In this document: positions 1-61,335 of the stretch, one piece after another
How the letters are laid out: each line of letters starts with the position of its first letter
Numbering within the stretch: position 1 is the stretch's first letter
Source: an uncultured Gammaproteobacteria bacterium
GTDB taxonomy: Bacteria > Patescibacteriota > Patescibacteriia > Patescibacteriales > JAGXOH01
Assembly (NCBI GenBank): GCA_964635515.1
Contig: CAZWNU010000001.1
Location: 5,068-69,067, forward strand
Direction of reading: 5' to 3'
DNA length: 64,000 bases
The notes under the pieces: model-generated
Database searches by the model: none
What the model was told of the DNA's origin: nothing
Seen by the model: the letters and a program-made list of their open reading frames with translations, nothing else
Translations under genes and position numbers: made by a program

Positions 1-183
1 TACCTCCAGCTCTCCCGGCTCAATATCCATTTTCTCCAGGATGGGCCTGATCAAACTTTCCGGTTGGTTAAGCATAGCCAACAACAGATGGGTGGCCTCA
101 ATGTTTTGCTGGCCGCTTTCTTGGGCTATTACCTGAGAGTTTATAATAGCCTCTTGTGCTTTATTTGTGAATTTATTGAACAT
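1..183 (-). CDS. Clp/Hsp100 ATPase, N-terminal (Clp_N) portion only; the gene continues past the window edge
   Basis: Reverse translation from the ATG at 183-181 gives MFNKFTNKAQEAIINSQVIAQESGQQNIEATHLLLAMLNQPESLIRPILEKMDIEPGELEV, a typical ClpB/ClpC N-domain repeat. Confidence 0.6.
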   Translation of the reverse strand, partial: MFNKFTNKAQEAIINSQVIAQESGQQNIEATHLLLAMLNQPESLIRPILEKMDIEPGELEV

Positions 184-210
184 AAAAATTTATTTTGATA
201 ATTTTATTAA

Positions 211-237
211 TTAGCACTCTTACTATTTAAGTGCTAG
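211..237. promoter_or_regulatory. CIRCE-like inverted repeat (candidate HrcA operator) upstream of the edge Clp gene
   Basis: TTAGCACTC-N9-AAGTGCTAG compared with the CIRCE consensus TTAGCACTC-N9-GAGTGCTAA (7/9 match in the right arm). Confidence 0.4.
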
Positions 238-348
238 TTATGAATATAATATGAGTGCAAAAAATTGTCAAGTAAGCTTGTTTATTAATTATATTAATAT
301 TATAATGATAACATAAAAAAATTGCAAAACAGTAGCGTGGGCAAAGCT

Positions 349-357
349 TGATATAAT
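349..357 (+). promoter_or_regulatory. Extended -10 promoter (TGaTATAAT) immediately upstream of the WecB-Nudix gene
   Basis: TG at 349-350 and TATAAT at 352-357; the ATG at 366 implies a leaderless or very short-leader mRNA. Confidence 0.35.
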
Positions 358-365
358 CAAATGCT

Positions 366-1562
366 ATGAAAAAAATAAATATCTTAGGTGTAAACATTAC
401 TGATCTTAACAAGAAAGAAGTTGTCAAGCAAATTGAGAAAAGCGCTGAAGGCAAAGCAAAGAGCTTATTTGTTGTCACCCCGAATCCGGAGATAATTCTT
501 GAAGCAGAAAAAGATGGAGAATTTTTATTTATTCTAAACCAAGCGGACTTAGCCATTCCGGATGGGGTGGGTTTAAAATTCGCCTCTTGGTTGACTGGCC
601 ACAACCTGGCCAGGATCACCGGTGCAGACCTGACCGAAGAGATATTAAAGATAGCTGAGAGAAAAGGTTTAAGATTAGGGATAATTAAACCTCCTCGAGC
701 CCTATCTGAAAATAAAGAGATCCAAAAAGCGGTAAATAGAAAATTCCCAGAATTGAACTTTTTAATATCAGAATGCTCTTCAGAGGAGGTGGACAATTTC
801 CAAGATCAAAAAATGTTTGATTTCGAACCTGAAATAATACTAAGCACACTAGGAGCTCCTTTTCAAGAAAAATTTATCTTCCATAATTTTAAAAGATTTT
901 CTAAAATTAAACTGGGTATAGGAGTGGGGGGTTCTCTGGATTTTTTGACCGGCAAAGCGCCGCGCGCCCCTAAAACATTAAGGATATTGGGCCTAGAATG
1001 GACTTGGAGGCTTGCTAAACAACCCCGAAGATGGAAACGGATAATTAAAGCTACTCTGGTTTTTCCTTGGAAGTTTCTTAAGTGGCGCTTTTTACTTCCA
1101 TTTTTTTATCGAGATAACTTGATCTGCTTGCTTTACAAGAAAAAAAATGATAATTACAAGGTTTTGGTGGTGGAAAGAAGGGAGGGGTCTGGGAAATGGC
1201 AGATTCCTCAGGGAGGAAAAGATGGTGAAGATCTGGTCACTGCCGGATCCAGAGAGTTAAGGGAAGAACTAAATTGCCACTCTTTTATTCCAATAGCTTC
1301 CTTTAAAAAAATACATAAGTACAGGTTTCCAAGGTCTTATCCCAGACCCTCAAAACATGGGGGATACAAGGGTCAAAAACAAGATCTTTTTATAGCCGAA
1401 TTCCAGGGAAAAGATCCTGATATTAAAATAAATTTTTGGGAACATAAAAATTGGCAATGGGTAGATTACAAAGATCTAGTAAATGTGGTTGATCCCAACA
1501 GGAGAGAGGCTATGAAAAAAATCATTCAAATATTTAAAAAAAATGTTATAAATAAAAATTGA
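366..1562 (+). CDS. WecB/TagA/CpsF-family glycosyltransferase fused to a C-terminal Nudix hydrolase domain
   Basis: The first ~250 aa align along their length with WecB/TagA N-acetylmannosaminyltransferases (ILGVNI..., ADLAIPDGVGL, IGVGGSLDFLTGKAPRAPK, LGLEWTWRL). The C-terminus carries a Nudix box, GGKDGEDLVTAGSRELREEL (E-x7-REUxEE). Confidence 0.7.
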   Translation: MKKINILGVNITDLNKKEVVKQIEKSAEGKAKSLFVVTPNPEIILEAEKDGEFLFILNQADLAIPDGVGLKFASWLTGHNLARITGADLTEEILKIAERKGLRLGIIKPPRALSENKEIQKAVNRKFPELNFLISECSSEEVDNFQDQKMFDFEPEIILSTLGAPFQEKFIFHNFKRFSKIKLGIGVGGSLDFLTGKAPRAPKTLRILGLEWTWRLAKQPRRWKRIIKATLVFPWKFLKWRFLLPFFYRDNLICLLYKKKNDNYKVLVVERREGSGKWQIPQGGKDGEDLVTAGSRELREELNCHSFIPIASFKKIHKYRFPRSYPRPSKHGGYKGQKQDLFIAEFQGKDPDIKINFWEHKNWQWVDYKDLVNVVDPNRREAMKKIIQIFKKNVINKN

Positions 1563-1564
1563 TT

Positions 1565-3040
1565 ATGACTAAAAAGATCAGAACCAGGTTCGCCCCTTCA
1601 CCCACAGGCTTTCTTCATATCGGGGGACTAAGGACAGCTTTATTCAATTATTTGGTCTCCAAGAGGGACGGAGGAAAGACTCTTCTCAGAATAGAGGATA
1701 CGGACCAGAAGAGAGAGGTGGTCGGTGCGGTAAAGAGTTTGGAGGAGGTTTTAAATTGGTCTGGAATAAAATTTGATGAAGGGCCAAACCAGGGAGGAGA
1801 ATACGGTCCATATATACAGAGTCAAAGATTGGATGTCTATGAAAAATATATAAATAAACTTTTAGACTCCCAAAAGGCTTATTATTGTTTTTGCAGCTCT
1901 GACAGATTGGCCGAGCTAAGGGATGAACAAAGACAAAAAAATCAACCTCCGAGGTATGATAGAAAATGCCGAGACCTAAATATCCAAGAGGTGAACAAAA
2001 AATTAGAACAAGAAGAACCTTATGTAATTAGGCAAAAAATTCCACTTGAGGGAGAGATTCTGGTGAAAGACCTTTTGAGGGGGGAGATAAAATTTAAAGC
2101 CAAAGACCTGGAAGACCATGTCCTGATAAAGTCAGATAAGACCCCCACTTACCAATTTGCCTCTGTGGTAGATGATCATTTAATGGAAATAAGCCATGTA
2201 ATCAGAGGAGAAGAGTGGCTACCTTCTTTTCCTAAAAATGTTCTGCTGTACCAGGCTTTTGACTGGATTACCCCAGAGTTTATTCACCTCCCTTTAATTC
2301 TGGACAAGGAGGGGGGTAAGTTAAGCAAAAGAAAAAACAATGTGGCGGTAGAGGATTACAAAAAGCAGGGGTATCTACCGGAAGCTTTAATAAATTTTGT
2401 GGCTTTATTAGGTTGGCACCCCAAGGATGACAATGAAATCCTCAGTTTAGAAGAAATAAGGGAAAAATTCCGAGCGGATGATATTGGTATCAGTCCGGCC
2501 ACTTTTGATCTAGATAAATTGAACTATCTTAATGGATATTATATTAGGCAAACAAGCCTTTCAAGTTTAACTGATAAATGTTTGCCCTTTTTAGAGAAAA
2601 ATATGGAAAAATCCTCCAGGAACCATAAAAAAGAAAGGAAATTCTTAGAAAAGGTAGTCGCTATGGAACAAGAGAGAATGAAGAAACTCGAAGACATAGC
2701 GGACCTAACCGAATTTTTATTTTTAGATGATCTTAGTTATGAAAAAGATCTTTTGGTGTGGAAAAAAATGAGCGAAGAAGAGGTGGCTGAAAACCTAAAA
2801 ACCATATACCAAATATTAGAAAAAATACCAGAAAAGGATTGGAGCATCAAAACTCTGGAAAAACATATATTCGACTACATAAAAGAAAGAGGGGAGAAGG
2901 TGGGCAACTTTTTATGGCCGCTCAGAGTGGCTTTAACCGGGCAAGAGAAAAGCCCCGGCCCTCTTGAGGTGGCTGATGCCTTGGAAAAAAAAGAGAGTTT
3001 GGCCAGAATCGAAAGTGCTTTGAATTTAATACAAAATTAA
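1565..3040 (+). CDS. gltX: Glutamyl-tRNA synthetase
   Basis: RFAPSPTGFLHIGG (HIGH) and KLSKR (KMSKS) class I motifs with GluRS-like architecture. The ORF track starts at a TTG at 1559; the first ATG is at 1565. Confidence 0.9.
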   Translation: MTKKIRTRFAPSPTGFLHIGGLRTALFNYLVSKRDGGKTLLRIEDTDQKREVVGAVKSLEEVLNWSGIKFDEGPNQGGEYGPYIQSQRLDVYEKYINKLLDSQKAYYCFCSSDRLAELRDEQRQKNQPPRYDRKCRDLNIQEVNKKLEQEEPYVIRQKIPLEGEILVKDLLRGEIKFKAKDLEDHVLIKSDKTPTYQFASVVDDHLMEISHVIRGEEWLPSFPKNVLLYQAFDWITPEFIHLPLILDKEGGKLSKRKNNVAVEDYKKQGYLPEALINFVALLGWHPKDDNEILSLEEIREKFRADDIGISPATFDLDKLNYLNGYYIRQTSLSSLTDKCLPFLEKNMEKSSRNHKKERKFLEKVVAMEQERMKKLEDIADLTEFLFLDDLSYEKDLLVWKKMSEEEVAENLKTIYQILEKIPEKDWSIKTLEKHIFDYIKERGEKVGNFLWPLRVALTGQEKSPGPLEVADALEKKESLARIESALNLIQN

Positions 3041-3079
3041 ATAAAAAAACAATCCGGATTTTAAATGATCAAGGGTTTG

Positions 3080-3088
3080 TGTTATAAT
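3080..3088 (+). promoter_or_regulatory. Extended -10 promoter (TGtTATAAT) upstream of the small-membrane-protein/Clp operon
   Basis: TG at 3080-3081 and TATAAT at 3083-3088, about 38 nt before the ATG at 3126. Confidence 0.3.
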
Positions 3089-3125
3089 AATTTTACGATA
3101 AATAAACTAAGATTATTTAAATTTT

Positions 3126-3476
3126 ATGGGCAGCCATGCTCTCAAAATTTTTGGCCAAACAATACTGGATATAGCTTACTTCCCCCTTTGGTGGTACTCT
3201 CAAGGATTGTTAAAAGTTCTTAGATTTTTAAAATCTTTTTTGCTTCAAAAAGAAAAAAGTTTAGCCTTTTTAGTTTGGGTAAAGAACATATTTACCCCCA
3301 TGTATGGACAGAGAGATGTCGCCGGATTTCTGATAAGTTTTTTTATGAGGTTGGTGCAAATAATATTCAGAGGCCTTGTATTGCTTTTTTGGCTTGCCTT
3401 TGTCCTAGGGGTCTTATTATTTTATATCCTCCTGCCCCTGATGTTGCTTTACCAAATTATTTACCAAATTATTTAA
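3126..3476 (+). CDS. Small polytopic membrane protein of unknown function, translationally coupled to the downstream Clp-like ATPase
   Basis: 116 aa with 2-3 hydrophobic helices (LVLLFWLAFVLGVLLFYILLPLMLL). Its TGA stop overlaps the ATG at 3478. Confidence 0.45.
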   Translation: MGSHALKIFGQTILDIAYFPLWWYSQGLLKVLRFLKSFLLQKEKSLAFLVWVKNIFTPMYGQRDVAGFLISFFMRLVQIIFRGLVLLFWLAFVLGVLLFYILLPLMLLYQIIYQII

Positions 3477-3477
3477 G

Positions 3478-6237
3478 ATGATCGAAAAAAAAGATGAATT
3501 ACAATTTATAACTTGCCCTGAATGCCAGGGGAGTGGAAGAGGGGAAATGGGGTTTGGCTGTTTTAATTGTCAGGAAATGGGGCAAGGGGTTTTATTTAAG
3601 GGAAGATTCTTATTTTTTGGACCCAAACTTGATATTAAAAAAATAAAATTTCCTTTAATAAAAAACAGGTTCGACAGGATGGTCAATTTTACTTCCTTTT
3701 TTCTCGCTTTCTTAGGCCTCCTGTCTTTGTCTTTTTGGTATTATTTAAATTTCTCTCAATTTCAATTCTGGCAAGATTTTTTATTTTGGCAGTATACCGA
3801 TATTTTGATCTTATTTTTTTGGCTGGGAGCTTTATTTTTCATCTTCGGTATCTACAAAATAATCAAGGAGGGGGATGAGGAGAAAAAGATTTCTGATTTC
3901 AAGGAGGTGGAAGAGAGTTTAGAAAATATTGAAGATTGGGAAGAGATAAAGAAATACAAATACAAATATGATACTGCGGAGGCTTTGAGCAGGGAAAGTT
4001 TGAGAACAATAGCAGAGTCCTATAAAATAGCTAAAAGGTTTAAGCATCAGGAAATAACACCTCTCCATCTTTTCGCCGCTCTAATAATTCAAGATTCTTG
4101 GATGATCGCTCTTTTTGATAGATTAAATATAAATCAACAAGAATTATTTGAAAAAATCGGAAGGCAGTTAAACCGGGAAAAACAATCTCAAAAGAATGCT
4201 CGTCCCTCAAGGTTCAATAAATCGATTAAAAAAATTTTTATCTCTGGTTTTGTGGACGCTTATGAGTTGGGACAAGAGAATGTCAAACCTTTTAATCTAG
4301 TGACTTATTGCACTCGAGAAGATGATTTTCTAAAAGAGCTGCTCCTGGATTTTAAGATTGATGAAAGAAAAATAGAAAATGTTCTGTCTTGGTTCAGGAC
4401 TAATGAAGAAATAATAGAGAATATAAAAACCTATAAAAAGGTTGCCAGATTCAAACCTAAGAGTAATATGGACAGGGCTTATACTTCAGTAGAAACCACC
4501 TTTTTAAATAAGTGTAGTTATGACTTGACCTTGGCAGCTAAGTGGGGTAGATTGGGCTTGTGCGTCTCTAGAGAGAAGGAGATAAATAAAATATTCAATT
4601 CTTTGACTGGTGTTAATAGAGGGGTGGTTTTAGTGGGGCCGGAAGGAGTAGGCAAAAAAACTATTGTCAAAGGAGTGGCCAGGTTGATGGTGAGAGAAAA
4701 AGTCCCTGACTTCTTATGGGACAAGAGGCTGCTAGAGCTAGATGTGGCCAGGTTGCTCAGCGGAGCCACTCCATCTCAATCAGAGGAAAGAATATTAAGA
4801 GTTTTGGATGAAATATTCAGGGCCGGTAATATAGTTTTATATATAAAAAATATTGATAACTTAATAGGAATAAAAGTGGGGGAGGAGGGAGGAATGGATC
4901 TTTCCGAAGCTTTGGTTGACGGGCTGGAAAGGAGAGGTATATATTGCCTGGCCACCACCACTAAAAGCAATTTTTATCAATATGTTGAAAAAAGCGCCAT
5001 AACCGGGAGTATGGCCAAAATAGATGTTTCAGAGCCCGAAGGAGATCAAGCTATCAGAATTATAGAAAGTAAAATAGGCTTGATGGAGGCTAAGTTTAAG
5101 GGAGTGTTCTTTTCCTACAATGCCATAGAATCAGCTATCGAACTGTCCCAGAGATACATCCATGATAAACATTTACCCCAAAAAGCTCTGGAGATTATAG
5201 AGCAAACCGGAATCAGATTATTCAAGTCCAAAAAGAAAAAAGAAAAAGTTCTGTGCAAAAAGAATGATATAGCCCTGACGATCAAGGAAATGACCAATAT
5301 CCCGGTCGATGAAGTGTCAGAGGAGGAAGGGATCAAGCTTCTTGGATTGGAAAAGGAAATACATAAACACATTATAAACCAAAGCGAGGCCGTGAATATG
5401 GTATCTGATAGCCTGAGAAGGGCTAGAGTAGAGTTGAAGGAAGAGAAAAAGACTATATCAAATTTTTTATTTTTAGGACCAACAGGAGTAGGTAAAACTG
5501 AACTGGCCAAAACCGTATCCAAAGTTTATTTAGGAAAAGAGGAGTTTATGATAAGGTTGGACATGAGTGAATATCAGCATGAAGACAGTGTTAAAAAAAT
5601 AATAGGGGACACTAGTGGTAAGAAGGGATATTTGACAGAGGCTGTGAGAAAAAATCCTTTCTCTTTAATACTCCTTGATGAATTTGAAAAAGCTCATCCT
5701 AAGATATTGGATCTCTTTTTACAGGTTACTGATGAGGGCAGACTAACTGACGGTCAGGGAAGAACGGTTGATTTCACCAGTAGCATTATTATAGCCACAT
5801 CAAACATCGGTTCTCGTTTTATTGAAAAGGAAATATCCGTAGGCAAGGAAATCAAGGATATAAAAGAAGTCCTTATAAACGAAAAATTAATAGAAGTTAT
5901 TAAACCGGAATTGATCAATAGGTTTGACGGGGTTATTATATTCAAACCCTTAAGCATGAAGAATGTGGTTGAGATAACCAAATTAATAATAGAAGGAGTC
6001 AGAAAAATGCTTGAAAACAAAAGCATAATTTTAAAAATAGATGAGGCCGGGGTTAGGAAGTTGGCTGAAGAAGGGCATGATCCCAAGTTCGGAGCCAGGC
6101 CCTTAAGGAGATTGATAAAAAAGAAAATAGAAAATGAAATAGCCAAAAAGATATTATCAGGGGAGTTGAGCACAAGAGACACTGTTATCATCAACCATAA
6201 TGTTGAAATAGAAGTCGAAAAGGCTAAAAAATTATAA
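3478..6237 (+). CDS. Membrane-anchored Clp/Hsp100-family AAA+ ATPase with an N-terminal zinc ribbon and a degenerate first nucleotide-binding domain
   Basis: CPECQ...CFNCQ zinc ribbon, then two TM helices, then a Clp_N-like repeat. The first module (D1) has GPEGVGKKT, and the Walker B position reads YIKNID rather than the canonical FIDELH. The second module (D2) is intact: GPTGVGKTE, LILLDEFEKAHP, sensor ATSN and a C-terminal ClpB_D2-small region. Confidence 0.75.
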   Translation: MIEKKDELQFITCPECQGSGRGEMGFGCFNCQEMGQGVLFKGRFLFFGPKLDIKKIKFPLIKNRFDRMVNFTSFFLAFLGLLSLSFWYYLNFSQFQFWQDFLFWQYTDILILFFWLGALFFIFGIYKIIKEGDEEKKISDFKEVEESLENIEDWEEIKKYKYKYDTAEALSRESLRTIAESYKIAKRFKHQEITPLHLFAALIIQDSWMIALFDRLNINQQELFEKIGRQLNREKQSQKNARPSRFNKSIKKIFISGFVDAYELGQENVKPFNLVTYCTREDDFLKELLLDFKIDERKIENVLSWFRTNEEIIENIKTYKKVARFKPKSNMDRAYTSVETTFLNKCSYDLTLAAKWGRLGLCVSREKEINKIFNSLTGVNRGVVLVGPEGVGKKTIVKGVARLMVREKVPDFLWDKRLLELDVARLLSGATPSQSEERILRVLDEIFRAGNIVLYIKNIDNLIGIKVGEEGGMDLSEALVDGLERRGIYCLATTTKSNFYQYVEKSAITGSMAKIDVSEPEGDQAIRIIESKIGLMEAKFKGVFFSYNAIESAIELSQRYIHDKHLPQKALEIIEQTGIRLFKSKKKKEKVLCKKNDIALTIKEMTNIPVDEVSEEEGIKLLGLEKEIHKHIINQSEAVNMVSDSLRRARVELKEEKKTISNFLFLGPTGVGKTELAKTVSKVYLGKEEFMIRLDMSEYQHEDSVKKIIGDTSGKKGYLTEAVRKNPFSLILLDEFEKAHPKILDLFLQVTDEGRLTDGQGRTVDFTSSIIIATSNIGSRFIEKEISVGKEIKDIKEVLINEKLIEVIKPELINRFDGVIIFKPLSMKNVVEITKLIIEGVRKMLENKSIILKIDEAGVRKLAEEGHDPKFGARPLRRLIKKKIENEIAKKILSGELSTRDTVIINHNVEIEVEKAKKL

Positions 6238-6273: not shown

Positions 6274-6561
6274 TTAACCCGTTGCCATTTCCTTTCTTTC
6301 TTGTTCTATAAATCTTTCCAAAATTATGACGGGTTCAAGTCCCAATTTTTTACATCTTTTTTGGAAAAAAGGACAGCTGAAAAAATGGGCACAAAATTTG
6401 GCATAAATTATTGTCTTTTTTTGATTTGCCAAATCCTGGTCTTGAAGATTGTCTAAATCTTCCATTTTTTGCAGAAAAGACGCAACCCTTTTTTTCCTTA
6501 ACCTTTTTTTCCCATTCAAATTGATCACTGCTCCTCCTCCTACTCCTGTTAGTGGTTTCAA
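6274..6561 (-). CDS. Small hypothetical Cys-containing protein; start uncertain (TTG at 6561 or ATG near 6464)
   Basis: A 95-aa ORF in a gap between genes that is otherwise 340 bp long, ending just before a minus-oriented hairpin terminator. C-x6-C-x6-C spacing; no recognisable family. Confidence 0.25.
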   Translation of the reverse strand: MKPLTGVGGGAVINLNGKKRLRKKRVASFLQKMEDLDNLQDQDLANQKKTIIYAKFCAHFFSCPFFQKRCKKLGLEPVIILERFIEQERKEMATG

Positions 6562-7658
6562 TTAAAAAGAACCTTATGATTGAGAACTATTATATCATAA
6601 TTTTCCTATTTTGTGCAAGTCTAACCGCTGTTTTGACATTTTTTGTTATTAAGCTGGCCTGGAAATGGGATATTGTAGACCACCCTTCTGAAAAAAGAAA
6701 AATACATGAAAAGCCCACTCCCTTACTGGGAGGGGTGGCCATATTCTTGGCTTTTTTCTTAAGTCTTTTTCTGTTGCGCGAAAACTTAATTATAGGGGAT
6801 TTGGAATATCATCACTGGCTGGGATTTTTTGCCGGAGCTGTTTTTTTAATTATTGGGGGTTTTTTGGATGATAAGTATAAACTTAGGCCATCCAGACAAG
6901 TTATTTGGCCTATTTTAGCCGTACTTTGCGTTATTGCCGGAGGAGTGGGGATTACTAAGATATCCAACCCCTTTAATGACTTGTTTTATCTTGATACCGT
7001 AACCCTGACTATTTTTAAGTGGGGGGACTCGACATATTATCTTACCCTGCTTAGAGACGCCTTTACTTTTCTTTGGTTGATGGCTATGATGTATACTACC
7101 AAACTTCTGGACGGAGTTGATGGTCTGGTCTCTGGGGTAGTGGCTATTGGAGGATTTATCATTTTTCTCTTCACTACCACCACCCAATATTATCAACCTG
7201 ATATAGCCCTTGCCTCCCTGATCCTTATGGCTTGTTGTTTGGGTTTTTTGATTTTCAACTGGAGTCCGGCTAAAATATTTTTAGGTGAGGGAGGCTCCTT
7301 ATTACTTGGATATCTTCTGGGAGTGCTGGCTATTATCTCAGGTGGAAAAATAGCTATAGCCTTTTTAGTCTTAGGACTCCCTGTTTTAGATCTACTGTGG
7401 ACCATAATTAGAAGACTCTGGAGCGGTCAAAACCCCTTTAAGACAGCTGATAAAAAACATCTTCATCATAAATTATTGAACTGGGGTTTGAGCCCGGAGC
7501 AAACTTCTCTAGTTTTTTATTTCTTTGCTTTAATCTTTGGTGTCAGCGCCTTATTTCTTCAAACCACCGGAAAAATATTGGCTATACTAGGATTGATTCT
7601 TCTAATGTTTTTCTTAGTAACCGGACTTAAGCGCTTGGGGAGTAAGGACAGAGTTTAG
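6552..7658 (+). CDS. Polyprenyl-phosphate N-acetylhexosamine-1-phosphate transferase (WecA/MraY family, GT4 clan)
   Basis: HPSEKRKIHEKPTPLLGGVAIF, DDKYKL, DGVDGLVSG and ten or so TM helices. Alternative ATG start at 6576. Confidence 0.8.
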   Translation: MVSIKKNLMIENYYIIIFLFCASLTAVLTFFVIKLAWKWDIVDHPSEKRKIHEKPTPLLGGVAIFLAFFLSLFLLRENLIIGDLEYHHWLGFFAGAVFLIIGGFLDDKYKLRPSRQVIWPILAVLCVIAGGVGITKISNPFNDLFYLDTVTLTIFKWGDSTYYLTLLRDAFTFLWLMAMMYTTKLLDGVDGLVSGVVAIGGFIIFLFTTTTQYYQPDIALASLILMACCLGFLIFNWSPAKIFLGEGGSLLLGYLLGVLAIISGGKIAIAFLVLGLPVLDLLWTIIRRLWSGQNPFKTADKKHLHHKLLNWGLSPEQTSLVFYFFALIFGVSALFLQTTGKILAILGLILLMFFLVTGLKRLGSKDRV

Positions 7659-7678: not shown

Positions 7679-8053
7679 ATGTTCAATTATCCTGAAGCTA
7701 AAATATATCTTGTTTTTTCTTGGGTTGTTTTTATTTTGATCTTAATTATCACCCCTCTCCCGAATCTGGAAAACAGTTCAGAGTTGACCCTTAATGATAA
7801 AATAATCCATTTTTTTATGTTCGGGGTCTTGAGTTTTTTGCTTAACTGGAGCCTTAGGGAAGTGAGGGAGTCTAGGCCTCTTTTTGCAGACACCTTAATT
7901 GTCTCTGGAGTGATCATATATGTTTTGCTCTGCGAGTACATACAAGGCTTTATTCCCAGCCGAACAGCTTGTCAATGGGATATTATAGCTGGCATTCTCG
8001 GCGCAATTATTGGCCTGACATTAGCTAATCTTTATTTCCGTGAAGAAAAATAA
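7679..8053 (+). CDS. VanZ-like membrane protein
   Basis: HFFMFGVLSF...EYIQGFIPSRTACQWDIIAGILGAIIG matches the VanZ family signature. Confidence 0.55.
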   Translation: MFNYPEAKIYLVFSWVVFILILIITPLPNLENSSELTLNDKIIHFFMFGVLSFLLNWSLREVRESRPLFADTLIVSGVIIYVLLCEYIQGFIPSRTACQWDIIAGILGAIIGLTLANLYFREEK

Positions 8054-25884: not shown

Positions 25885-27330
25885 ATGAAAATAAACAATA
25901 TTGCTAAAAACACTTCTTATCTAACTTCCGCTCTGGTGATTCAAAAGGTAATTTCCTTTGCCTATTTTACTTTATTGGCAAGAAATCTTGGTCCAGAGAA
26001 TATGGGAATGTATTATTTTGCTATCTCCTTCACCACCGTTCTGGCTGTGTTCATAGACTTGGGTCTTATAAATATTTTGATGCGGGAGGTGGCTAAAACC
26101 AAAGAAAGGGCCCAAGAGCTACTGGGCAGTGTCTTGGCTATAAAACTACCCTTAGCCCTATTAACCCTAGGATCGGCTATTTTGATAATTCATCTACTTA
26201 ACTATCCCAGCCTGGTCGTTCACCTTGTATATCTTTCTTGTATATGTATGATCCTGGATTCCTTTACTACAAGCTTTTTTGCTGTCATCAGAGGTTTTCA
26301 TAATTTAATCTATGAGAGCATAGGATCAGTGTTGTTCCAGTTAATAGTAATGATATTAGGGCTAGTAGCTGTTTATAGTGGCATGAGCCTGCTCTGGGTA
26401 ATGGGCGCTTTGGTGGCTGCCAGTATTTTTAATTTTTCCTATTCTTCTCTGGTTCTCTGGAAGAAATTAGATTTAGTAATAAAGCCTGTTTATAATCAAA
26501 GATTAATATTATCCTTAAGTAGGCTTGCTATTCCTTTCGGCCTGTTTGCTCTATTTCAAAGGTTCTATATGCACTTTGATTCGGTTTTACTCTCCATTAT
26601 AGCCGGGGATAGATATGTAGGCTACTACCAAGTAGCTTTTAAAATAATCTTCGCTCTTCAGTTCCTGCCCCTAGCCTTTGTAGCCTCCTTGTATCCGGCC
26701 ATGAGTTATTACTGGATTAATAATCGGGAACAATTGACTATAACCTTTGAAAGAGCAATGAAATACTTAATGATAATATCTATCCCGATTAGTACCGGGG
26801 TAATAATTTTGTCCGACAAGATAATAAATATATTCGGTAAAGAATTTTCCGGAGCCACGCTTCCCATGCAAATAACTATTTTGGCGCTACTTTTTATTTT
26901 CATTAATTTTCCAATCGGCTCTCTTTTAAATGCTTGCGATAGACAGAAATATAACACAATAAACATGGGGATAGCGGTTACGCTGAGCATAACACTTAAC
27001 CTTATCCTGATTTCAAAATTTCAGGCCGTAGGGGCAGGGGTCACTGTTTTAGTAACTAATTTTTTAATGACTATCTTGGGCCTTTACTGGGCCGGGAAAA
27101 TAATAAACTACGACAAAAAAATGATGTTAATAAATTTTATTAAAATTATAATATCCGGCCTGGCCATGGGTGTTTTAGTTTTTGAATTGCAAAAATATCT
27201 AAATATATTTTTAATCATACCCCTTGGAGGGATTTTCTATTTCCTTGTTCTGTATTTGGTCAGGGGCTATACCAAAGAAGACATCAAAAGCATAACTTCG
27301 TCCTTTTTAGCTAAAAAACAAAAGGGTTAG
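25885..27330 (+). CDS. Polysaccharide flippase-like MOP-superfamily transporter (Wzx-like)
   Basis: About 14 TM helices, with polysaccharide-biosynthesis-protein (PF01943-like) topology and composition. Confidence 0.7.
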   Translation: MKINNIAKNTSYLTSALVIQKVISFAYFTLLARNLGPENMGMYYFAISFTTVLAVFIDLGLINILMREVAKTKERAQELLGSVLAIKLPLALLTLGSAILIIHLLNYPSLVVHLVYLSCICMILDSFTTSFFAVIRGFHNLIYESIGSVLFQLIVMILGLVAVYSGMSLLWVMGALVAASIFNFSYSSLVLWKKLDLVIKPVYNQRLILSLSRLAIPFGLFALFQRFYMHFDSVLLSIIAGDRYVGYYQVAFKIIFALQFLPLAFVASLYPAMSYYWINNREQLTITFERAMKYLMIISIPISTGVIILSDKIINIFGKEFSGATLPMQITILALLFIFINFPIGSLLNACDRQKYNTINMGIAVTLSITLNLILISKFQAVGAGVTVLVTNFLMTILGLYWAGKIINYDKKMMLINFIKIIISGLAMGVLVFELQKYLNIFLIIPLGGIFYFLVLYLVRGYTKEDIKSITSSFLAKKQKG

Positions 27331-27478
27331 AACCCACTGATTTGACTTTTCTATAATACTAACCTTTCACGAAAAGCAGGGCCTAGAATAATGGCCAGTG
27401 GAAATTTGTTCAATTTTGTGATATTTTTAACAATACTGGGGAAGATTTTAAAAATTAATTTAAGTTGCAATATCTACT

Positions 27479-28186
27479 ATGATTTCAGTAATTATTCCTG
27501 TTTATAACCAAGGAGATAAGCTAACAAAAACGCTGGACAGCCTTGAAAGGCAAAGCTATCAAGATCTAGAGATAATAATAGTGAATGATGGATCTTCAGA
27601 TAATACTCAAAAAACGATAGAAGATCATGTGCCTGAAATGAAGAGGAGGGGAATGAATGTGAAAGTTTTTGTTCATAACAGAAACAAAGGAGCTCCTGCG
27701 GCCAGAAATGAAGGATTTAGAGCGTCTGAGGGTGAGTATCTGTTTTTTTGTGATGCTGATGCTATCTTGGAATCCCATGCCCTGGAAAAGATGTTAAATA
27801 CTATAAAGCAAGTTCCAGATACGAGTTATGTCTACTCCTCCTTTAAATGGGGAGCAAAAAAATTTCCAGTAGGAAGTTTTAGTGAAGAGAAATTAAAGCA
27901 AGGGCCCTGCATCCACACCATGGCCCTTATTAAAAGAAATGACTTTCCTGAATCGGGTTGGGACGAAAGCATTACCAAACTTCAGGATTGGGACTTATGG
28001 CTAACCATGTTAGATCAGGGCAAAAAGGGTTATTGGATAAATGAGGCTCTTTTTACTATAAGTCCTGGGGGGAATATAAGTTTCTGGATCCCATCTTTTT
28101 TTTACAAATTATTTCCCTTCCTGCCCTCTGTTAAAAAATATAAAAAGGCTGTAGAAAAAATCAAGAAAAAGCACGGCCTAAAATAA
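27479..28186 (+). CDS. Family 2 glycosyltransferase
   Basis: ISVIIPVYNQGDKLTKTLDSLERQSY...IIVNDGSSDNT, with DAD and QDWD-like motifs. Confidence 0.8.
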   Translation: MISVIIPVYNQGDKLTKTLDSLERQSYQDLEIIIVNDGSSDNTQKTIEDHVPEMKRRGMNVKVFVHNRNKGAPAARNEGFRASEGEYLFFCDADAILESHALEKMLNTIKQVPDTSYVYSSFKWGAKKFPVGSFSEEKLKQGPCIHTMALIKRNDFPESGWDESITKLQDWDLWLTMLDQGKKGYWINEALFTISPGGNISFWIPSFFYKLFPFLPSVKKYKKAVEKIKKKHGLK

Positions 28187-28197
28187 CCATTTATCCG

Positions 28198-28632
28198 ATG
28201 AAATTAACTAAAATTTTTCTAATTTTTATTATTTCTTTAATAATTTCGGGCTGCGGACCAGGGGCGGAAAAGGTATTAATAAAAATAAATGATCAAAAAA
28301 TAGAAGCAGAGATAGCTCAAACCCCAAGAGAAAAATACAAAGGCTTGAGCAAAAGAGAAGATCTTTGTTATAATTGTGGGATGCTGTTTCTTTTTTCAGA
28401 AAAAAGAAAAGCGACCATTGTTATGCGAGATATGAATTTTCCTCTAGATATTTTATGGATAAAAGATCAAAGAATTGTTGGGATAGACAAGAACGCGCCC
28501 CCGGAGGGAAGAAATCCTAAAACAAAATATCAAAGCTCACAACCAGTAGACCAAGTCTTGGAACTTAACGGAGGTTTCTGTGAAAAACATGATATAAAAG
28601 CAGGGGACAGTATTAAAATAATATCAAATTAA
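28198..28632 (+). CDS. DUF192 (COG1430) lipoprotein
   Basis: Lipobox (ISGCG) and the DUF192 core (MLFLFSE...IVMRDMNFPLDILWI). Confidence 0.65.
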   Translation: MKLTKIFLIFIISLIISGCGPGAEKVLIKINDQKIEAEIAQTPREKYKGLSKREDLCYNCGMLFLFSEKRKATIVMRDMNFPLDILWIKDQRIVGIDKNAPPEGRNPKTKYQSSQPVDQVLELNGGFCEKHDIKAGDSIKIISN

Positions 28633-30161
28633 TGAATAAAATAATCACTTCCAATTTTAAATTTATTCTTATCGCCCTCTTGTTGATAGAAAGTTTCTCT
28701 TTTCTGGGAAATTATTTTTCTTTTCTAGGAAATTATTTTTTTATAATTGTTTCTTTAATAGTACTATTCCTAACCTTAAAAGACATCCGATACGGTCTAT
28801 GGATAGTATTAGCCGAACTTCTTATCGGATCCCAAGGTTATTTATTCTCTCTCAATTTAGCGGGAACTTCTATTTCTATTAGAATGTCGATATGGTTTAT
28901 AGTATTGGCGGTTTGGTCATCTAAAATTCTAACTAATTTTTATAAAAAACCCCGAGGGGAGAGAACCTTTCCTAACATTAAATTATTCAAATCTTCTTAC
29001 TTTTCCTACCTTCTTATCCTATTCTTTTTTGTAGCCTGGGGAGGTATTAATGGCTTTATAAACAACAACTCTTTACACGAAATTCTATTTGACATCAACA
29101 GCTGGTTTTATTTGGCCCTAATATTTCCTTTGTATGAAGTGGCCTGGAAGGAAAACTTCTTTAAACCATTAGCGGAGATACTGTTAGCTTGCGCCATCTG
29201 GATCAGCCTAAAATCTTTGTTTATATTGTTTGTATTCTCTCATAATATTCACTCTTGGATGGGACCTTTGTACTCTTGGGTGAGAGATACGGGGGTGGGG
29301 GAGATAACCGCCATGGACGGTGGCTTCACCAGAGTGTTCTTTCAATCTCATATTTTTATTGTTATAGCCATATTTTTGGGAATTATACTTATAAACAAAG
29401 TTTTGACCTCAAAAAAAGAACTTTCCGGAGAAGATAAGAAATGGATACTTCTCTATTCCGCTATCCTTATTCTTTTTTCCTCGGTTGTAATTATTAGTTT
29501 TTCCAGAAGTTTTTGGATAGGTTCTATGGCTGGAATATTGTTCTTGTTAGCTATAGTTCAAAAAAAATACGGTTTTAAAAATTTAATTTTAAACATCTTA
29601 GGTATTTTTTCAATGGTTATACTCAGCCTAGGCTTGGTAGCGGCCATAATCAACATTCCTGTAATAGGAGAAAAAACTGACCTTAGAACATCAGAAAGCG
29701 TACGTGACAGAGCCAGAGATGTGTCTGGAGAGGCGGCTGTTTCTTCTCGCTGGAACCTACTTCCCAAAATGTGGGAGGAGATAAAAAGTGACCCTGTTTT
29801 GGGAAAGGGCTTTGGAACCACAATCACTTATATATCAAGTGACCCCAGAGCTTTACAAAGATCAGCTGAAGGCGAGTATACAACCTATGCCTTTGAGTGG
29901 GGTTGGCTTGACATATGGCTAAAGATCGGCTTTCTTGGACTTCTTTGCTACTTATTCCTTATAGCAAAAATGATCTTTGATGGCCTGGCCAAGCCTAAAT
30001 TGTTCAAGTCAACACTGGGCAACTGCCTGATAATAGGTTTAATGGTGTTCATAGTAGTCCATTTTTTTACACCCTACCTAAACCATCCTCTGGGCTTTGG
30101 GTTCTTAATGTTATCAATTATAGCCTTGAACAAATTAGAGGAAGACGGTATTATTACTTGA
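28632..30161 (+). CDS. O-antigen ligase/polymerase-like (Wzy_C-type) polytopic membrane protein
   Basis: At least 10 TM helices with a large periplasmic loop (residues ~345-410). Carries an in-frame 24-bp tandem duplication (FSFLGNYF x2). Confidence 0.4.
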   Translation: MNKIITSNFKFILIALLLIESFSFLGNYFSFLGNYFFIIVSLIVLFLTLKDIRYGLWIVLAELLIGSQGYLFSLNLAGTSISIRMSIWFIVLAVWSSKILTNFYKKPRGERTFPNIKLFKSSYFSYLLILFFFVAWGGINGFINNNSLHEILFDINSWFYLALIFPLYEVAWKENFFKPLAEILLACAIWISLKSLFILFVFSHNIHSWMGPLYSWVRDTGVGEITAMDGGFTRVFFQSHIFIVIAIFLGIILINKVLTSKKELSGEDKKWILLYSAILILFSSVVIISFSRSFWIGSMAGILFLLAIVQKKYGFKNLILNILGIFSMVILSLGLVAAIINIPVIGEKTDLRTSESVRDRARDVSGEAAVSSRWNLLPKMWEEIKSDPVLGKGFGTTITYISSDPRALQRSAEGEYTTYAFEWGWLDIWLKIGFLGLLCYLFLIAKMIFDGLAKPKLFKSTLGNCLIIGLMVFIVVHFFTPYLNHPLGFGFLMLSIIALNKLEEDGIIT

Positions 30162-36264: not shown

Positions 36265-36660
36265 ATGCATCAAAGTGTAGGAGTGTTAATAAAAAACGAA
36301 AAAAGTGAAATATTAATGCTTTCCAGAAAGAATTACCCCTACGGCTGGGCCTGTCCGGCCGGCCATATAGACCAAGGAGAGGGGCCGGAGGAAGCGGCGC
36401 ATAGAGAAGTAAGAGAAGAAACTGAAATAATTTTGAAAGAAATTCATAAATTATTTCAGGAATTCATACCTTGGAATGAATGTTCTCAAGGAGTAAAAGG
36501 CCACTATTGGCATGTATATCAGGCCAAATCATGGCTTGGTGAGATAAAAGAGAAAGACAAAGAAGCCGATGTTATAAAATGGGTAAAACAAGGAGAGTTA
36601 AAAAAATTAAAGTTAGAACCAGTTTGGCAATACTGGTTTCAAAAATTAAATATTTTATAA
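36265..36660 (+). CDS. Nudix hydrolase
   Basis: Nudix box GHIDQGEGPEEAAHREVREETEI. Confidence 0.8.
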   Translation: MHQSVGVLIKNEKSEILMLSRKNYPYGWACPAGHIDQGEGPEEAAHREVREETEIILKEIHKLFQEFIPWNECSQGVKGHYWHVYQAKSWLGEIKEKDKEADVIKWVKQGELKKLKLEPVWQYWFQKLNIL

Positions 36661-39076: not shown

Positions 39077-40277
39077 GAGAACCAAAAACATTAAACTATC
39101 AACCATAAAAGAGATTGAACTTAAAGCAGCTCAATATCCGGATGCTATTTCTTTGGCTCAAGGAATACCTGATTTTGATACTCCTGAATTTATTAAAAGA
39201 AGAGTAGAAAGGGCTCTAAAAAGGGGGGTGGTTGCCAAATACTCATTATCACCGGGCTTGCCGGAGTTAAGGGAATTGATAGAAGAGTCCTTGGCCAAGG
39301 ATAAAATGTATTATGATTGGGAAAAAGAAGTTTTAGTTACTGCCGGTTCAATAGAAGGTATAACAGCCACTATAATGGCCATAACCAACCCAGGAGATGA
39401 AGTAATAATACCCGAGCCTACTTATACTAGTTACAGAGAAGTAATTAACCTGGCTGCTTGCAAACCTATTTTTGTTCCTTTAGATGAAGAGAGGGGATGG
39501 GGTTTTAATATAGAGGAATATAAAAAGGCTATAACAAAAAACACCAAGGCTATTTTTTATTGCAACCCTAACAACCCCACAGGAACCATATACTCTAAGG
39601 AGCAATTAATGGAATTAGCTGATTTAGCCAAAAAAAACAAACTATTCCTAATATCTGATGAGGTCTATAAAGATTTTATTTATGATCAAAAGAGCTTTTT
39701 TTCATTAGCCCAAATCCCGGAATTACGAGATAGGGTTATAAGAATATTCTCCTTCTCCAAGGCCTTTGCCATGACCGGCTGGAGGATTGGCTATCTACAC
39801 AGTGATGAGAAAAACATCAAGGAAATAACCAAAATACATGATAGCCTGGTCACTTGCGCGCCAGTGATCTCTCAATATGCCGCCATGGGAGCTCTGGAGA
39901 TAGAACAGGAGAAAGTTTTAGAATTTTGCCAAAAATACAAACAGAGAAGAGATTTAATTTGTCTAAGATTAGAGAAGTTAAAACATGTTTTTCAGTTTGT
40001 AACACCTGATAGCGCTTACTATATATTTCCAAAAATATCTCTAAAATTAGCAAAAAAAATAGAGAAGGAAAAAAATATTAATTTAACAAAAGAGGGGGGT
40101 GTGGACTCGTGGAAATTCGCTCTATGGCTACTAGAGGAAACACAAGTGGCAACAGTCCCAGGAGTGGCCTTTGGGCCGAACGGTGAGGGCCATATCAGGA
40201 TGAGCTTTGGAAGGAAAGAGGAAGATATTAATCAAGCTTTTGATAGATTGGAAAATCTATTTAATTTTCAATTATGA
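39069..40277 (+). CDS. Class I/II PLP-dependent aminotransferase (aspartate/aromatic aminotransferase-like)
   Basis: SFSKAFAMTGWRIGY carries the Schiff-base Lys; GIPDFDTP; NPNNPTG. Confidence 0.8.
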   Translation: MFERTKNIKLSTIKEIELKAAQYPDAISLAQGIPDFDTPEFIKRRVERALKRGVVAKYSLSPGLPELRELIEESLAKDKMYYDWEKEVLVTAGSIEGITATIMAITNPGDEVIIPEPTYTSYREVINLAACKPIFVPLDEERGWGFNIEEYKKAITKNTKAIFYCNPNNPTGTIYSKEQLMELADLAKKNKLFLISDEVYKDFIYDQKSFFSLAQIPELRDRVIRIFSFSKAFAMTGWRIGYLHSDEKNIKEITKIHDSLVTCAPVISQYAAMGALEIEQEKVLEFCQKYKQRRDLICLRLEKLKHVFQFVTPDSAYYIFPKISLKLAKKIEKEKNINLTKEGGVDSWKFALWLLEETQVATVPGVAFGPNGEGHIRMSFGRKEEDINQAFDRLENLFNFQL

Positions 40278-41029
40278 GAGTTATATTAAAAACACTTCTA
40301 AAAAATTATTTAAAAATAATTACCAAGATGGTACTATTTGTTCACCGTCCCACTGTAATAGCCATAGCCGGAAGTACTAATAAAAACTTTGTTAAACAAG
40401 AAATAAAAAAAATATTGAGAGAATTTAATTTTAGCACCAGGGTTAATCCCAAAAACTTTAATACTGAAATAGGTTTACCTTTGGCCATACTTTACTTGCC
40501 CAGTGGTTATAATGAATACCAAAAGTGGCTTCCTGTTATATTTAAGGCTCCCTTGAAACTATTCCAAAAAAAATTCCCCAAATTCTTAGTCTTAAGCCTG
40601 GGCACTTCGGATGAGGGGGATATGAAGTATTTGCTTTCGATAGTAAAGCCTGACATCTCCATAATTACTGACATCACCCAGAGGTACAAAGAGGGATTTT
40701 CAGATATGAACCGCTTAGTAAACGAATATGAACTACTGGCCCAGAAAACAAAAAAAGGAGGACTTATAATACTTAACTCAGATAATTACAGAGTTAAAGA
40801 AATAGGGAAAAATAAAGAACAAAGAGTATTATACTATGGCTTCAAGGAAGAATCTGATGCAAGAATCGAAAAAACAGAAAAAAACGAAAAAGGCCAGAAG
40901 ATCATACTTAGACACCAAGGAGAAAAAAGAGAAGAACAAATATATAGATTTGGCAAACATCATTCTTATGTGTTAGCTATTGGCCATATAATAAAAAAAG
41001 AGTTGAAAAACAATGCGGAGATCAGATAA
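40274..41029 (+). CDS. Truncated MurF-like Mur-ligase central domain with a degenerate P-loop
   Basis: VIAIAGSTNKNF compared with MurF VVALTGSSGKTS (the P-loop Lys/Thr are lost); NFNTEIGLPLAIL compared with NLNNDIGVPMTLL. The N- and C-terminal Mur ligase domains are absent; 251 aa. Confidence 0.55.
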   Translation: MRVILKTLLKNYLKIITKMVLFVHRPTVIAIAGSTNKNFVKQEIKKILREFNFSTRVNPKNFNTEIGLPLAILYLPSGYNEYQKWLPVIFKAPLKLFQKKFPKFLVLSLGTSDEGDMKYLLSIVKPDISIITDITQRYKEGFSDMNRLVNEYELLAQKTKKGGLIILNSDNYRVKEIGKNKEQRVLYYGFKEESDARIEKTEKNEKGQKIILRHQGEKREEQIYRFGKHHSYVLAIGHIIKKELKNNAEIR

Positions 41030-56196: not shown

Positions 56197-56349
56197 GCCG
56201 GAACCAAAAAGAACAGACCGAATTTCTGTTCTTTTTTATTTGCCAAAAACCCGATTGACTTTTGTTTTTCAGAACTATAGAATTATTATATCTTTTGTGA
56301 AAATACAAACTAATTCGATCTTTAAAAAATTATTAAGGAGGGTATGAGA

Positions 56350-60579: not shown

Positions 60580-61335
60580 TTATCTATTAATATTTAACTT
60601 CTCTACTGCCTCTCTGTAAGCGCAAAAATCACAGTTCGGATCAGGCTTGGGAAATCGAGAGGAGTCCAAGGTGTCCTTGATATCTTTTAAGGTATCTTCC
60701 AGCCAAGAATCGTCTCCGGTATAAGCGATTAAAGTGATTTTAAATTCCAACTTGGCATCGAACTTCTCAGTATCAGTGATTCCGTTACAATAGACAAAAT
60801 AACCAGTGTCGGAAACCGAATAACCATTTTGACGCAAAAGCCATTGGTAAACCTCCATCTGTCTCTTGTAACCTCTCTGCCAATCTTTATTTAATTCAGT
60901 AATATCTTCTTCCTTGGAGGTTGCCTTATAATCAACCACAATATATTCTCCTTGGGGATTTATCCAAAGATCGTCAATGGCGCCGCTGACTTGAAAACCG
61001 GTGGGTTTATGATAACATTGCACTCCTTGAAAATTACGCCTCCAGACGTCCAGATGATCATGTTTCACCGGCCGAGCGGCAATTCCATAGCGCTCAATCA
61101 ATTCATGGGTTTCACCCTTTTCTCTTAAAATATCAAATTCTTTTTTCAACAGTTCATCTACCGCTGTATTCAGAGCAAAGGGAAATCCGGGCGGACGTTT
61201 TACCCCTAATTTATTATCTAAATAAAAACAAAGCGGGCACTCTATAAACAAGTCTATCTTAGAACGACTCAGTCTCCACTTGCTGCCACCATAATTATAG
61301 GTGGCGCTACGGTTGGGATTATAAAAACTGGACAT
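60580..61335 (-). CDS. Cas4-like PD-(D/E)xK nuclease with an Fe-S cluster cysteine quartet (DUF83-like), not linked to any CRISPR
   Basis: N-terminal ...IECPLCFYL (Cas4 CPxxFY-type motif), AIDDL ... IVVDYK (D...DxK), QMEVYQ (QxxxY) and a C-terminal CDFCAY. Confidence 0.55.
   Translation of the reverse strand: MSSFYNPNRSATYNYGGSKWRLSRSKIDLFIECPLCFYLDNKLGVKRPPGFPFALNTAVDELLKKEFDILREKGETHELIERYGIAARPVKHDHLDVWRRNFQGVQCYHKPTGFQVSGAIDDLWINPQGEYIVVDYKATSKEEDITELNKDWQRGYKRQMEVYQWLLRQNGYSVSDTGYFVYCNGITDTEKFDAKLEFKITLIAYTGDDSWLEDTLKDIKDTLDSSRFPKPDPNCDFCAYREAVEKLNINR

Follow-up and report, generated by a model that had tools for sequence, protein, structure and literature searches.

A widespread fusion of a TagA/WecG-type glycosyltransferase to an RppH-like Nudix domain in Patescibacteria

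The fusion gene and its two halves

We analysed a stretch of 64,000 nucleotides (the window; contig CAZWNU010000001.1, positions 5,068 to 69,067) filed under an uncultured Gammaproteobacteria bacterium and assigned by GTDB to the Patescibacteriota. Near its beginning, on the plus strand, lies an open reading frame (ORF) of 398 amino acids at 366..1562 (TGA stop included), whose ATG is the earliest possible start after the upstream stop, with no in-frame start further 5'. An initial annotation, made from the letters alone, had proposed that this ORF joins a WecB/TagA-type transferase to a Nudix hydrolase. This was borne out by Pfam, in which both domains scored above their cut-offs, PF03808 (Glyco_tran_WecG) at amino acids 60-226 with 113.6 bits (cut-off 27.4) and PF00293 (NUDIX) at amino acids 253-385 with 44.4 bits (cut-off 21.1). 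A database look-up showed the same protein, residue for residue, called on six contigs, and three fetched contigs from three samples (ERZ27266011, ERZ27266004 and SRR9330143) were 100% identical to positions 1-4000 of the window. The GC content was even over the junction, with values of 0.386 for the TagA part and 0.353 for the Nudix part, GC at third codon positions was likewise even, and hundreds of diverged orthologues kept the same layout. Taken together, these results exclude an assembly chimera or a frameshift, an explanation that the initial annotation had raised and to which we assign practically no weight, and indicate that the ORF does join, in a single frame, a complete TagA/WecG-type glycosyltransferase to a Nudix domain. 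In the literature on Nudix together with TagA, WecG, glycosyltransferase family 26 (GT26) or the candidate phyla radiation (CPR), we found no paper describing this architecture, in keeping with the earlier remark that the fusion was undescribed. The novelty lies in the domain architecture; both component families are well known, and public databases already contain the proteins, but any names given by the sources ("WecB/TagA/CpsF family glycosyltransferase", "Teichoic acid biosynthesis protein" or "hypothetical protein") leave the second domain unmentioned.

The glycosyltransferase core occupies amino acids 1-196 (366..953, plus strand) and includes T38, N40, D66, R83 and Q167. It matched the NCBIfam superfamily model of GT26, TIGR00696, with 100.5 bits (cut-off 69), and amino acids 2-228 aligned end to end, at ~30% identity, with full-length TagA/TarA of Thermoanaerobacter italicus, a GT26 enzyme of the WecB-TagA-CpsF family (PDB 7mpk, E 7e-33). 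In Foldseek, the AlphaFold2 (AF2) model of the fusion superposed on the TagA crystals 7n41 and 5wb4 with template-modelling scores, normalised to the target (TMt), of 0.84-0.85 and a root-mean-square deviation of ~2.5 Å, corresponding to a TagA-type (GT-E) fold. In the T. italicus enzyme, D65 probably acts as the general base, and the N-acetylmannosamine (ManNAc) moiety is contacted by N39 and Q167; catalysis or substrate binding requires E210, R214, R221 and R224, located in the C-terminal tail, which also directs the enzyme to the membrane (PMC8784642). According to the 7mpk alignment, D65, N39, Q167, E210, R214, R221 and R224 correspond to D66, N40, Q167, E211, R215, R222 and R225 in the fusion protein, which were 98-100% conserved in 196 sequences, Q167 being invariant and N40 conserved in 99%; the fold, the catalytic Asp, the ManNAc-contacting Asn and Gln and the Glu and Arg residues of the tail are common to the two proteins. 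The equivalog models for TarA (NF041710, 120.3 bits vs 350) and WecG (NF002980, 81.7 bits vs 323) both remained below their cut-offs. As judged from these comparisons, the N-terminal half belongs to GT26 and has kept its TagA-type active site intact, but it is a family member rather than a proven TarA equivalog, and its donor sugar is a predicted one.

The TagA tail was delimited by the 7mpk alignment, the AF2 model and hydrophobicity at amino acids 197-246 (954..1103, plus strand), and comprises E211, R215, R222 and R225 together with a helix at 220-246. The AF2 model, built from a 116-sequence alignment, had a predicted local distance difference test (pLDDT) value of 95.5 and a predicted template-modelling score (pTM) of 0.90. 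In this model the tail forms helices spanning 203-208, 211-218 and 220-246, and the third helix passes without a linker into the Nudix strand at 248. While known TagA/WecG enzymes stop after the tail (~244 amino acids), the last tail helix of the fusion protein goes on into a Nudix domain of 150 amino acids. T. italicus TagA ends at residue 244 and the YRxN motif of RppH starts at residue 7; therefore, the two proteins are joined essentially end to end. For the two domains, the pTM implies an orientation that is fixed and confidently predicted in the model. The segment 226-246 (IIKATLVFPWKFLKWRFLLPF) is strongly hydrophobic, aromatic and basic, a composition that would fit the membrane-binding role known for the TagA tail. 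When residues of the TagA part conserved specifically in fused proteins were sought, only E51 and P245 qualified, which is uninformative, and therefore the TagA core gives no sign of a specially adapted interface.

The Nudix half (amino acids 247-398; 1104..1559, plus strand) was classified as an RppH/NudH-type domain, resembling hydrolases of diadenosine tetraphosphate (Ap4A), on the basis of profile, PDB and Foldseek matches and of its ligand residues. Its Nudix box, recognized in the initial annotation as E-x7-RELREEL, is present as E288-x7-R296-E297-L-R-E300-E301-L within amino acids 283-304 (GGKDGEDLVTAGSRELREELNC; 1212..1277, plus strand). The box is a 22-residue variant, G-x4-E-x7-RELxEExN, and its alignment with the lupin Ap4A hydrolase placed the missing residue between the first Gly and Glu (G-x4-E vs the canonical G-x5-E). 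Conservation of the core was high, with R/K296 and E297 each retained in 193 of 196 sequences, E300 in 193 and E301 in 195, and the penultimate Gly of the box was replaced by Asn in about half of the members.

Five RppH models were the top NCBIfam matches of this half (85-88 bits). The best PDB sequence matches, each aligned over the whole domain, were the Ap4A hydrolase of Lupinus angustifolius (1f3y, E 4e-12), from the plant/proteobacterial NudH-type hydrolases of diadenosine polyphosphates (ApnA), and Escherichia coli RppH (4s2w, E 2e-8). The motifs WQxPQGG, GQxQ..F and E...W.WV, all outside the Nudix box, are common to these enzymes and the fused domain, while the lupin protein differs in being stand-alone and soluble and in having the canonical 23-residue box. 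After TagA, ~20 entries for E. coli RppH ranked next in Foldseek (TMt 0.76-0.81), ahead of Ap4A hydrolases and NudB, and E. coli RppH (NudH; 4s2w-y, 6d13 and 5ygu) was the best structural match of the Nudix half, with 25-27% identity only. By profile, sequence and predicted fold, the Nudix half thus groups with RppH/NudH and the Ap4A hydrolases.

In E. coli RppH, phosphates are bound by R8, N10, R27, Q37, Y77, Q95 and K140 and Mg2+ by E53, E57, Q37 and E120, and the base of the second nucleotide is held in a specificity cleft between R27 and V137/F139, with S32 (PMC7144940). The residues R8, N10, Q37, Y77, Q95 and K140 correspond to R249, N251, Q282, Y319, Q337 and R379 in the fused domain, and the metal ligands E53, E57 and E120 to E297, E301 and E/D359; each of the mapped ligands was conserved in at least 88% of the sequences and most of them in more than 97%. 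Because both the phosphate and the metal ligands are conserved, the oligophosphate-chain pyrophosphohydrolase chemistry of the RppH/NudH type appears to have been preserved under strong selection.

Spread of the fusion among relatives

In a search of 5.8 billion proteins, 119 of the 120 best matches (46-60% identity) carried both Pfam domains; in the exception (P0035) the Nudix box is recognizable but degenerate (R296S, E297D). When 1.84 billion cluster representatives (50% identity clusters) were searched exhaustively with phmmer, about half of the top 150 proved to be full-length fusions, with identities down to 31%. A relative was encoded in 551 species-representative genomes, and the best 80 of these loci, all of which encoded full-length fusions, confirmed the presence of the fusion in related genomes; where their titles were informative, they named Falkowbacteria, Parcubacteria or Patescibacteria. 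When the search was seeded with a 33%-identical member, further fused proteins were retrieved, one of them labelled Candidatus Doudnabacteria, and TagAs labelled Berkelbacteria and Gracilibacteria were unfused. Fused members sharing less than 40% identity with the window protein numbered 41, and these kept the TagA active-site residues save N40, which was Tyr in nine of them, a change that hints at a different donor sugar in that sub-branch. Many CPR-like loci (L004, L005, L011, L019 and others) were found in records titled "uncultured Gammaproteobacteria bacterium", and one (L030) in a bin titled "Methanosarcinaceae archaeon", titles that probably reflect placeholder names or bin contamination. 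Because identical contigs were found, together with fused homologues across databases, species genomes and divergent members, we conclude that the fusion is real and ancient and occurs widely in a part of the CPR.

The 281 retrieved relatives comprised 212 TagA-Nudix proteins, 59 TagAs alone, eight TagA-TagA proteins and two TagA-TagA-Nudix proteins. Tandem TagA-TagA relatives measure ~480-500 amino acids, and a relative joining TagA to Bac_transf also exists; relatives joining TagA to a GT9 heptosyltransferase measure ~600 amino acids, the few named ones being from Chloroflexi/Anaerolineaceae. These various architectures were seen in relatives P0167, P0173, P0200, P0204; P0323-P0392; P0382. 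In a neighbour-joining tree of the TagA domains, which is crude and carries no support values, fused forms occupied the earliest branches and unfused forms were scattered among them, a pattern weakly suggesting an old fusion with repeated later loss.

Two unfused relatives were inspected for a split into separate tagA and Nudix genes (P0181 in loci L085-L087 and P0151 in locus L084), and neither had an adjacent Nudix gene. At locus L085, a radical-SAM gene, a LigT-like gene and the TagA gene follow one another in the upstream order of many fused loci, with MreC directly after TagA and no Nudix gene. At locus L084, the TagA encoded at 91-858 (P0151) ends in YYRNNQCAN before the stop codon, and the next gene encodes an unrelated secreted repeat protein; the tail YYRNN, which resembles the start of the Nudix domain (YRxN), may be a relic of a deleted Nudix domain. 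Separate genes in relatives, the arrangement that the initial annotation had named as speaking against a true fusion, were therefore not seen, the Nudix domain being absent rather than split off at both loci. The LigT-like gene encodes a LigT/ThpR-like 2H phosphoesterase (RNA 2',3'-cyclic phosphodiesterase family) and lies directly 5' of TagA on the same strand in L085-L087 and in 13 of 79 fused loci; it thus precedes TagA in fused and unfused lineages alike, often with a radical-SAM gene further upstream.

Such comparisons bear on whether the fusion has any functional logic at all. A housekeeping RppH/NudH could have joined a neighbouring tagA in a streamlined genome, or the Nudix domain could be a structural or regulatory appendage. 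The interleaving of fused and unfused TagAs in the crude tree, which indicates that the domain can be lost, would agree with this, as would the TagA core free of fusion-specific constraints, the one member with a degenerate Nudix box (P0035) and the promiscuity of TagA, which is also found joined to a second TagA, to GT9 and to Bac_transf. However, more than 95% of the fused sequences, of which there were over 240, kept the catalytic residues, so that a purely structural role can be ruled out, and the two domains are joined without a linker in a packing predicted to be rigid. The idea also overlaps with that of a bifunctional enzyme, set out below, from which it differs only in whether co-localisation matters, and we consider it quite unlikely.

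Promoter, neighbouring genes and pathway genes

An extended -10 element, TGaTATAAT, was read from the sequence at 349..357 (plus strand), 8 nt before the ATG (A366) of the fusion gene, and no -35 hexamer was found at a spacing of 16-18 nt from it. Among 60 non-redundant upstream regions of orthologues, 19 had a perfect TATAAT 6-8 nt before the ATG, as compared with 2.6 expected for a uniform position, and hexamers matching at least five of the six positions occurred 5-8 nt upstream in 31 cases, as compared with 7.4 expected. A Shine-Dalgarno motif was present in only one of 64 orthologous upstream regions. Within the window, a Shine-Dalgarno-like motif preceded only seven of 62 ORFs, and its scarcity is thus not specific to the fusion gene, unlike the positional conservation of the -10 element, which is. 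Since transcription usually starts ~7 nt downstream of a -10 hexamer, the leader of the transcript would measure 0-2 nt. The leaderless message proposed in the initial annotation is therefore supported, in leaderless or nearly leaderless form, by the conserved TATAAT and the rarity of Shine-Dalgarno motifs, but not proven.

The fusion gene is followed by gltX, which encodes glutamyl-tRNA synthetase (1565..3040, plus strand; identified by ORF, Pfam and synteny) and starts either 2 nt past the fusion stop (ATG at 1565) or with a 4-nt overlap (TTG at 1559). No terminator was predicted between the two genes. Because of this short gap or overlap and the lack of a terminator, the fusion gene and gltX are likely co-transcribed. 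In 67 of 79 loci gltX follows the fusion, and in 49 an M23 peptidase gene does; divergent members of 30% identity, at loci L088 and L089, likewise have the fusion, gltX and M23 genes in this order. A dedicated teichoic-acid operon was not found around the fusion gene, whose conserved neighbours are gltX, the M23 peptidase, FtsQ, XerC and ClpB.

Further downstream, at 6552..7658 (plus strand), lies a gene for a WecA/TagO-like polyprenyl-phosphate N-acetylglucosamine (GlcNAc)-1-phosphate transferase of family GT4 (PF00953). Its match to the wecA model TIGR02380 (107 bits) was higher than that to mraY (72 bits), both being below their cut-offs, and, located 5 kb downstream of the fusion, it is a candidate source of the lipid acceptor of TagA. 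A VanZ-like gene (7679-8053) comes after it. A scattered teichuronic-acid-like set on the plus strand comprises, at 25885-30161, a Wzx/TuaB-like flippase, a TuaG-like GT2, a DUF192 protein and Wzy_C (O-antigen ligase/polymerase-like), as well as a distant TuaD-like UDP-glucose 6-dehydrogenase at 56344-57687. The scattered flippase, GT2, Wzy_C and TuaD-like genes are consistent with a lipid-linked wall-glycan pathway. Neither a UDP-GlcNAc 2-epimerase (MnaA/WecB) nor an LCP ligase was found in the ~50 of 62 window ORFs that were scanned.

With respect to other Nudix proteins, the window encodes a stand-alone one of 131 amino acids at 36265-36660 (plus strand), directly after a PP2C phosphatase, which is MutT/NudB-like and not RppH-like. 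No second RppH-type Nudix thus accompanies the fused domain in the 64-kb window, and no stand-alone RppH-type paralogues were found in the flanks of the 80 loci and the window, a negative that is not decisive, as ~13 kb per genome was searched.

Several other features of the window were recorded. A canonical ClpB gene lies upstream of the fusion gene on the minus strand, divergent from it, with its start near 183. A second, ClpB/ClpC-like double-AAA+ protein of 919 amino acids (3478-6237, plus strand) has two N-terminal CxxCxGxG motifs, like those of a DnaJ-type zinc finger, and two long hydrophobic stretches preceding Clp_N, which suggest a membrane-anchored Clp ATPase; a hydrophobic ORF of 116 amino acids with no Pfam match (3126-3476, plus strand) precedes it. 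An ORF of 251 amino acids at 40274-41029 (plus strand) contains only the middle domain of a Mur ligase (MurF-like), and, as similar short ORFs occur in seven related loci, it is perhaps no pseudogene but a truncated form that has been conserved. Another ORF of 251 amino acids (60580-61335, minus strand) appeared weakly Cas4-like (PD-(D/E)XK nuclease), scoring 38.9 bits where the cut-off is 65. An Rfam scan of the whole window returned no match, not even a tRNA.

Possible function of the fused enzyme

We propose that the fusion protein is a bifunctional, membrane-peripheral enzyme that would combine TagA-type sugar transfer with RppH/NudH-type hydrolysis of a nucleoside oligophosphate or an RNA 5' end, a proposal in which, taken as a whole, our confidence is about even. 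The TagA half (amino acids 1-246), as an inverting GT26 enzyme, would add a ManNAc-type sugar from a UDP-sugar to GlcNAc-PP-undecaprenol, an acceptor that the WecA/TagO-like GT4 enzyme encoded 5 kb downstream would make, and this reaction would be the second one in the assembly of the linkage unit of a wall glycopolymer. The Nudix half (amino acids 247-398) would cleave a pyrophosphate bond in a nucleoside oligophosphate, the candidate substrates being a 5'-tri- or diphosphorylated or nucleoside-tetraphosphate (Np4)-capped RNA end, a dinucleoside polyphosphate such as Ap4A, and guanosine tetra- or pentaphosphate ((p)ppGpp). Because it is welded to the membrane-binding tail of TagA, the Nudix domain would work at the inner face of the membrane.

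This location could also be read as that of a lipid-pyrophosphate hydrolase, cleaving undecaprenyl-PP-linked lipid alpha/beta at the membrane and freeing undecaprenyl phosphate from dead ends. Prenyl diphosphates are substrates of some Nudix enzymes, the direct attachment of the domain to a hydrophobic, aromatic tail helix would hold it at the membrane surface, and the nucleobase cleft of RppH is not conserved in it. However, we found no homology to prenyl-diphosphate Nudix enzymes, and the domain keeps all the nucleotide and phosphate ligands of the RppH type; with position as its sole basis, such an activity seems very unlikely.

Several observations weigh against an RppH/NudH-type activity on nucleoside oligophosphates or RNA at the membrane. 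The RppH equivalog models all remained below their cut-offs, the best being NF001938 with 88.4 bits vs 116. The base-cleft residues S32, V137 and F139 of RppH are not conserved, the aligned positions being K/H277, D/H376 and N378, and an Arg near R27 of RppH (R271) is the only conserved counterpart; because of this difference, the base or RNA specificity may differ from that of RppH. Membrane binding by the tail is an extrapolation from T. italicus TagA. The long-kept fusion and the fixed domain arrangement suggest a functional link to the TagA reaction, which an RNA or ApnA substrate does not obviously explain. Finally, E. coli RppH slowly hydrolyses nucleoside diphosphates and triphosphates (PMC7144940), and for this reason UDP would be a chemically plausible substrate.

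In an alternative reading, the Nudix domain acts on the ligands of TagA itself, either by hydrolysing UDP to UMP and Pi, relieving product inhibition, or by hydrolysing UDP-ManNAc or UDP-GlcNAc for flux control or proofreading. An action of this kind, on a nucleotide sugar with channelling or proofreading, was what the initial annotation had envisaged. The GDP-mannose mannosyl hydrolase NudD/WcaH belongs to the colanic-acid cluster, and this enzyme and the bifunctional NadM-Nudix (2r5w) are precedents for a Nudix encoded or fused with an enzyme whose nucleotide-linked substrate it degrades. The retention of the fusion over deep divergence with both active sites intact, the confident prediction of the packing of the two domains, and the replacement of the RppH base-cleft residues by the family-conserved H277, H360 and H376/P377, which points to a diverged specificity, are all in agreement with this alternative. 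In addition to the capacity of RppH-type sites to hydrolyse nucleoside di- and triphosphates, the preferred cellular substrate of RppH is a 5'-diphosphate (PMC7144940), and crystals show T. italicus TagA binding the non-cognate UDP-GlcNAc (PMC8784642), making a need for proofreading conceivable.

In contrast, no Nudix enzyme acting on GDP-, ADP- or UDP-sugars, NudD/WcaH-like ones included, was found among the NCBIfam matches, the PDB sequence matches or the 50 best Foldseek matches, in which NadM-Nudix was a weak match at rank 41, and the closest relatives are RppH and the Ap4A hydrolases; the fused domain thus belongs to a different Nudix subfamily. The ligands of the distal (gamma) phosphate in RppH are all conserved, suggesting that the substrate is RNA-like or has three or more phosphates in a chain. 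Furthermore, with only two fusion-specific TagA positions there is no co-adapted interface, nor any fusion-specific conserved surface on the TagA core, and the existence of unfused orthologous TagAs without an adjacent Nudix gene indicates that TagA does not need the domain. Nothing but the fusion itself points to an action on UDP or a nucleotide sugar, and we regard this alternative as possible but unlikely. A nucleoside polyphosphate or an RNA 5' end therefore appears the more likely substrate of the Nudix half, on the strength of its relatives and conserved ligands, than UDP or a UDP-sugar.

Within the RppH/NudH-type reading, a more specific role can be considered. In E. coli, RppH is stimulated by the peptidoglycan-precursor enzyme DapF, which docks on it at a distance from both active sites (PMC6061855), and in that complex, as in the fusion, an RppH-type enzyme is physically joined to a cell-envelope biosynthetic enzyme. 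The RppH-DapF contact is non-covalent and made through helices alpha4 and alpha5 of RppH, while the link in the fusion is covalent, has TagA as the partner and involves the N-terminus of the Nudix domain. The fusion could be a covalent analogue of RppH-DapF, in which an RppH-type enzyme acting on RNA 5' ends or removing Np4 caps would be permanently tethered to the membrane, and possibly regulated, by the committed-step enzyme of a wall glycopolymer, coupling 5'-end-dependent mRNA decay or alarmone/ApnA turnover to envelope synthesis; we put this forward tentatively, as a rather unlikely scenario.

The degree of surprise is moderate, and lies in a Nudix partner of the RNA/ApnA type rather than a glycan-pathway enzyme. 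For the Nudix substrate, either outcome is open to in vitro assay of recombinant protein, an advantage with organisms that resist culture. A domain acting on UDP or UDP-sugars would be the first Nudix of the RppH clade recruited to glycan synthesis. Should both halves be active, a large part of the Patescibacteria would carry out the second step of the linkage unit with an enzyme bearing a membrane RppH-like pyrophosphatase. The fusion would then represent a second, independent coupling of an RppH-type enzyme to an envelope enzyme after RppH-DapF of E. coli, suggesting that such coupling is a general principle rather than a peculiarity of E. coli.

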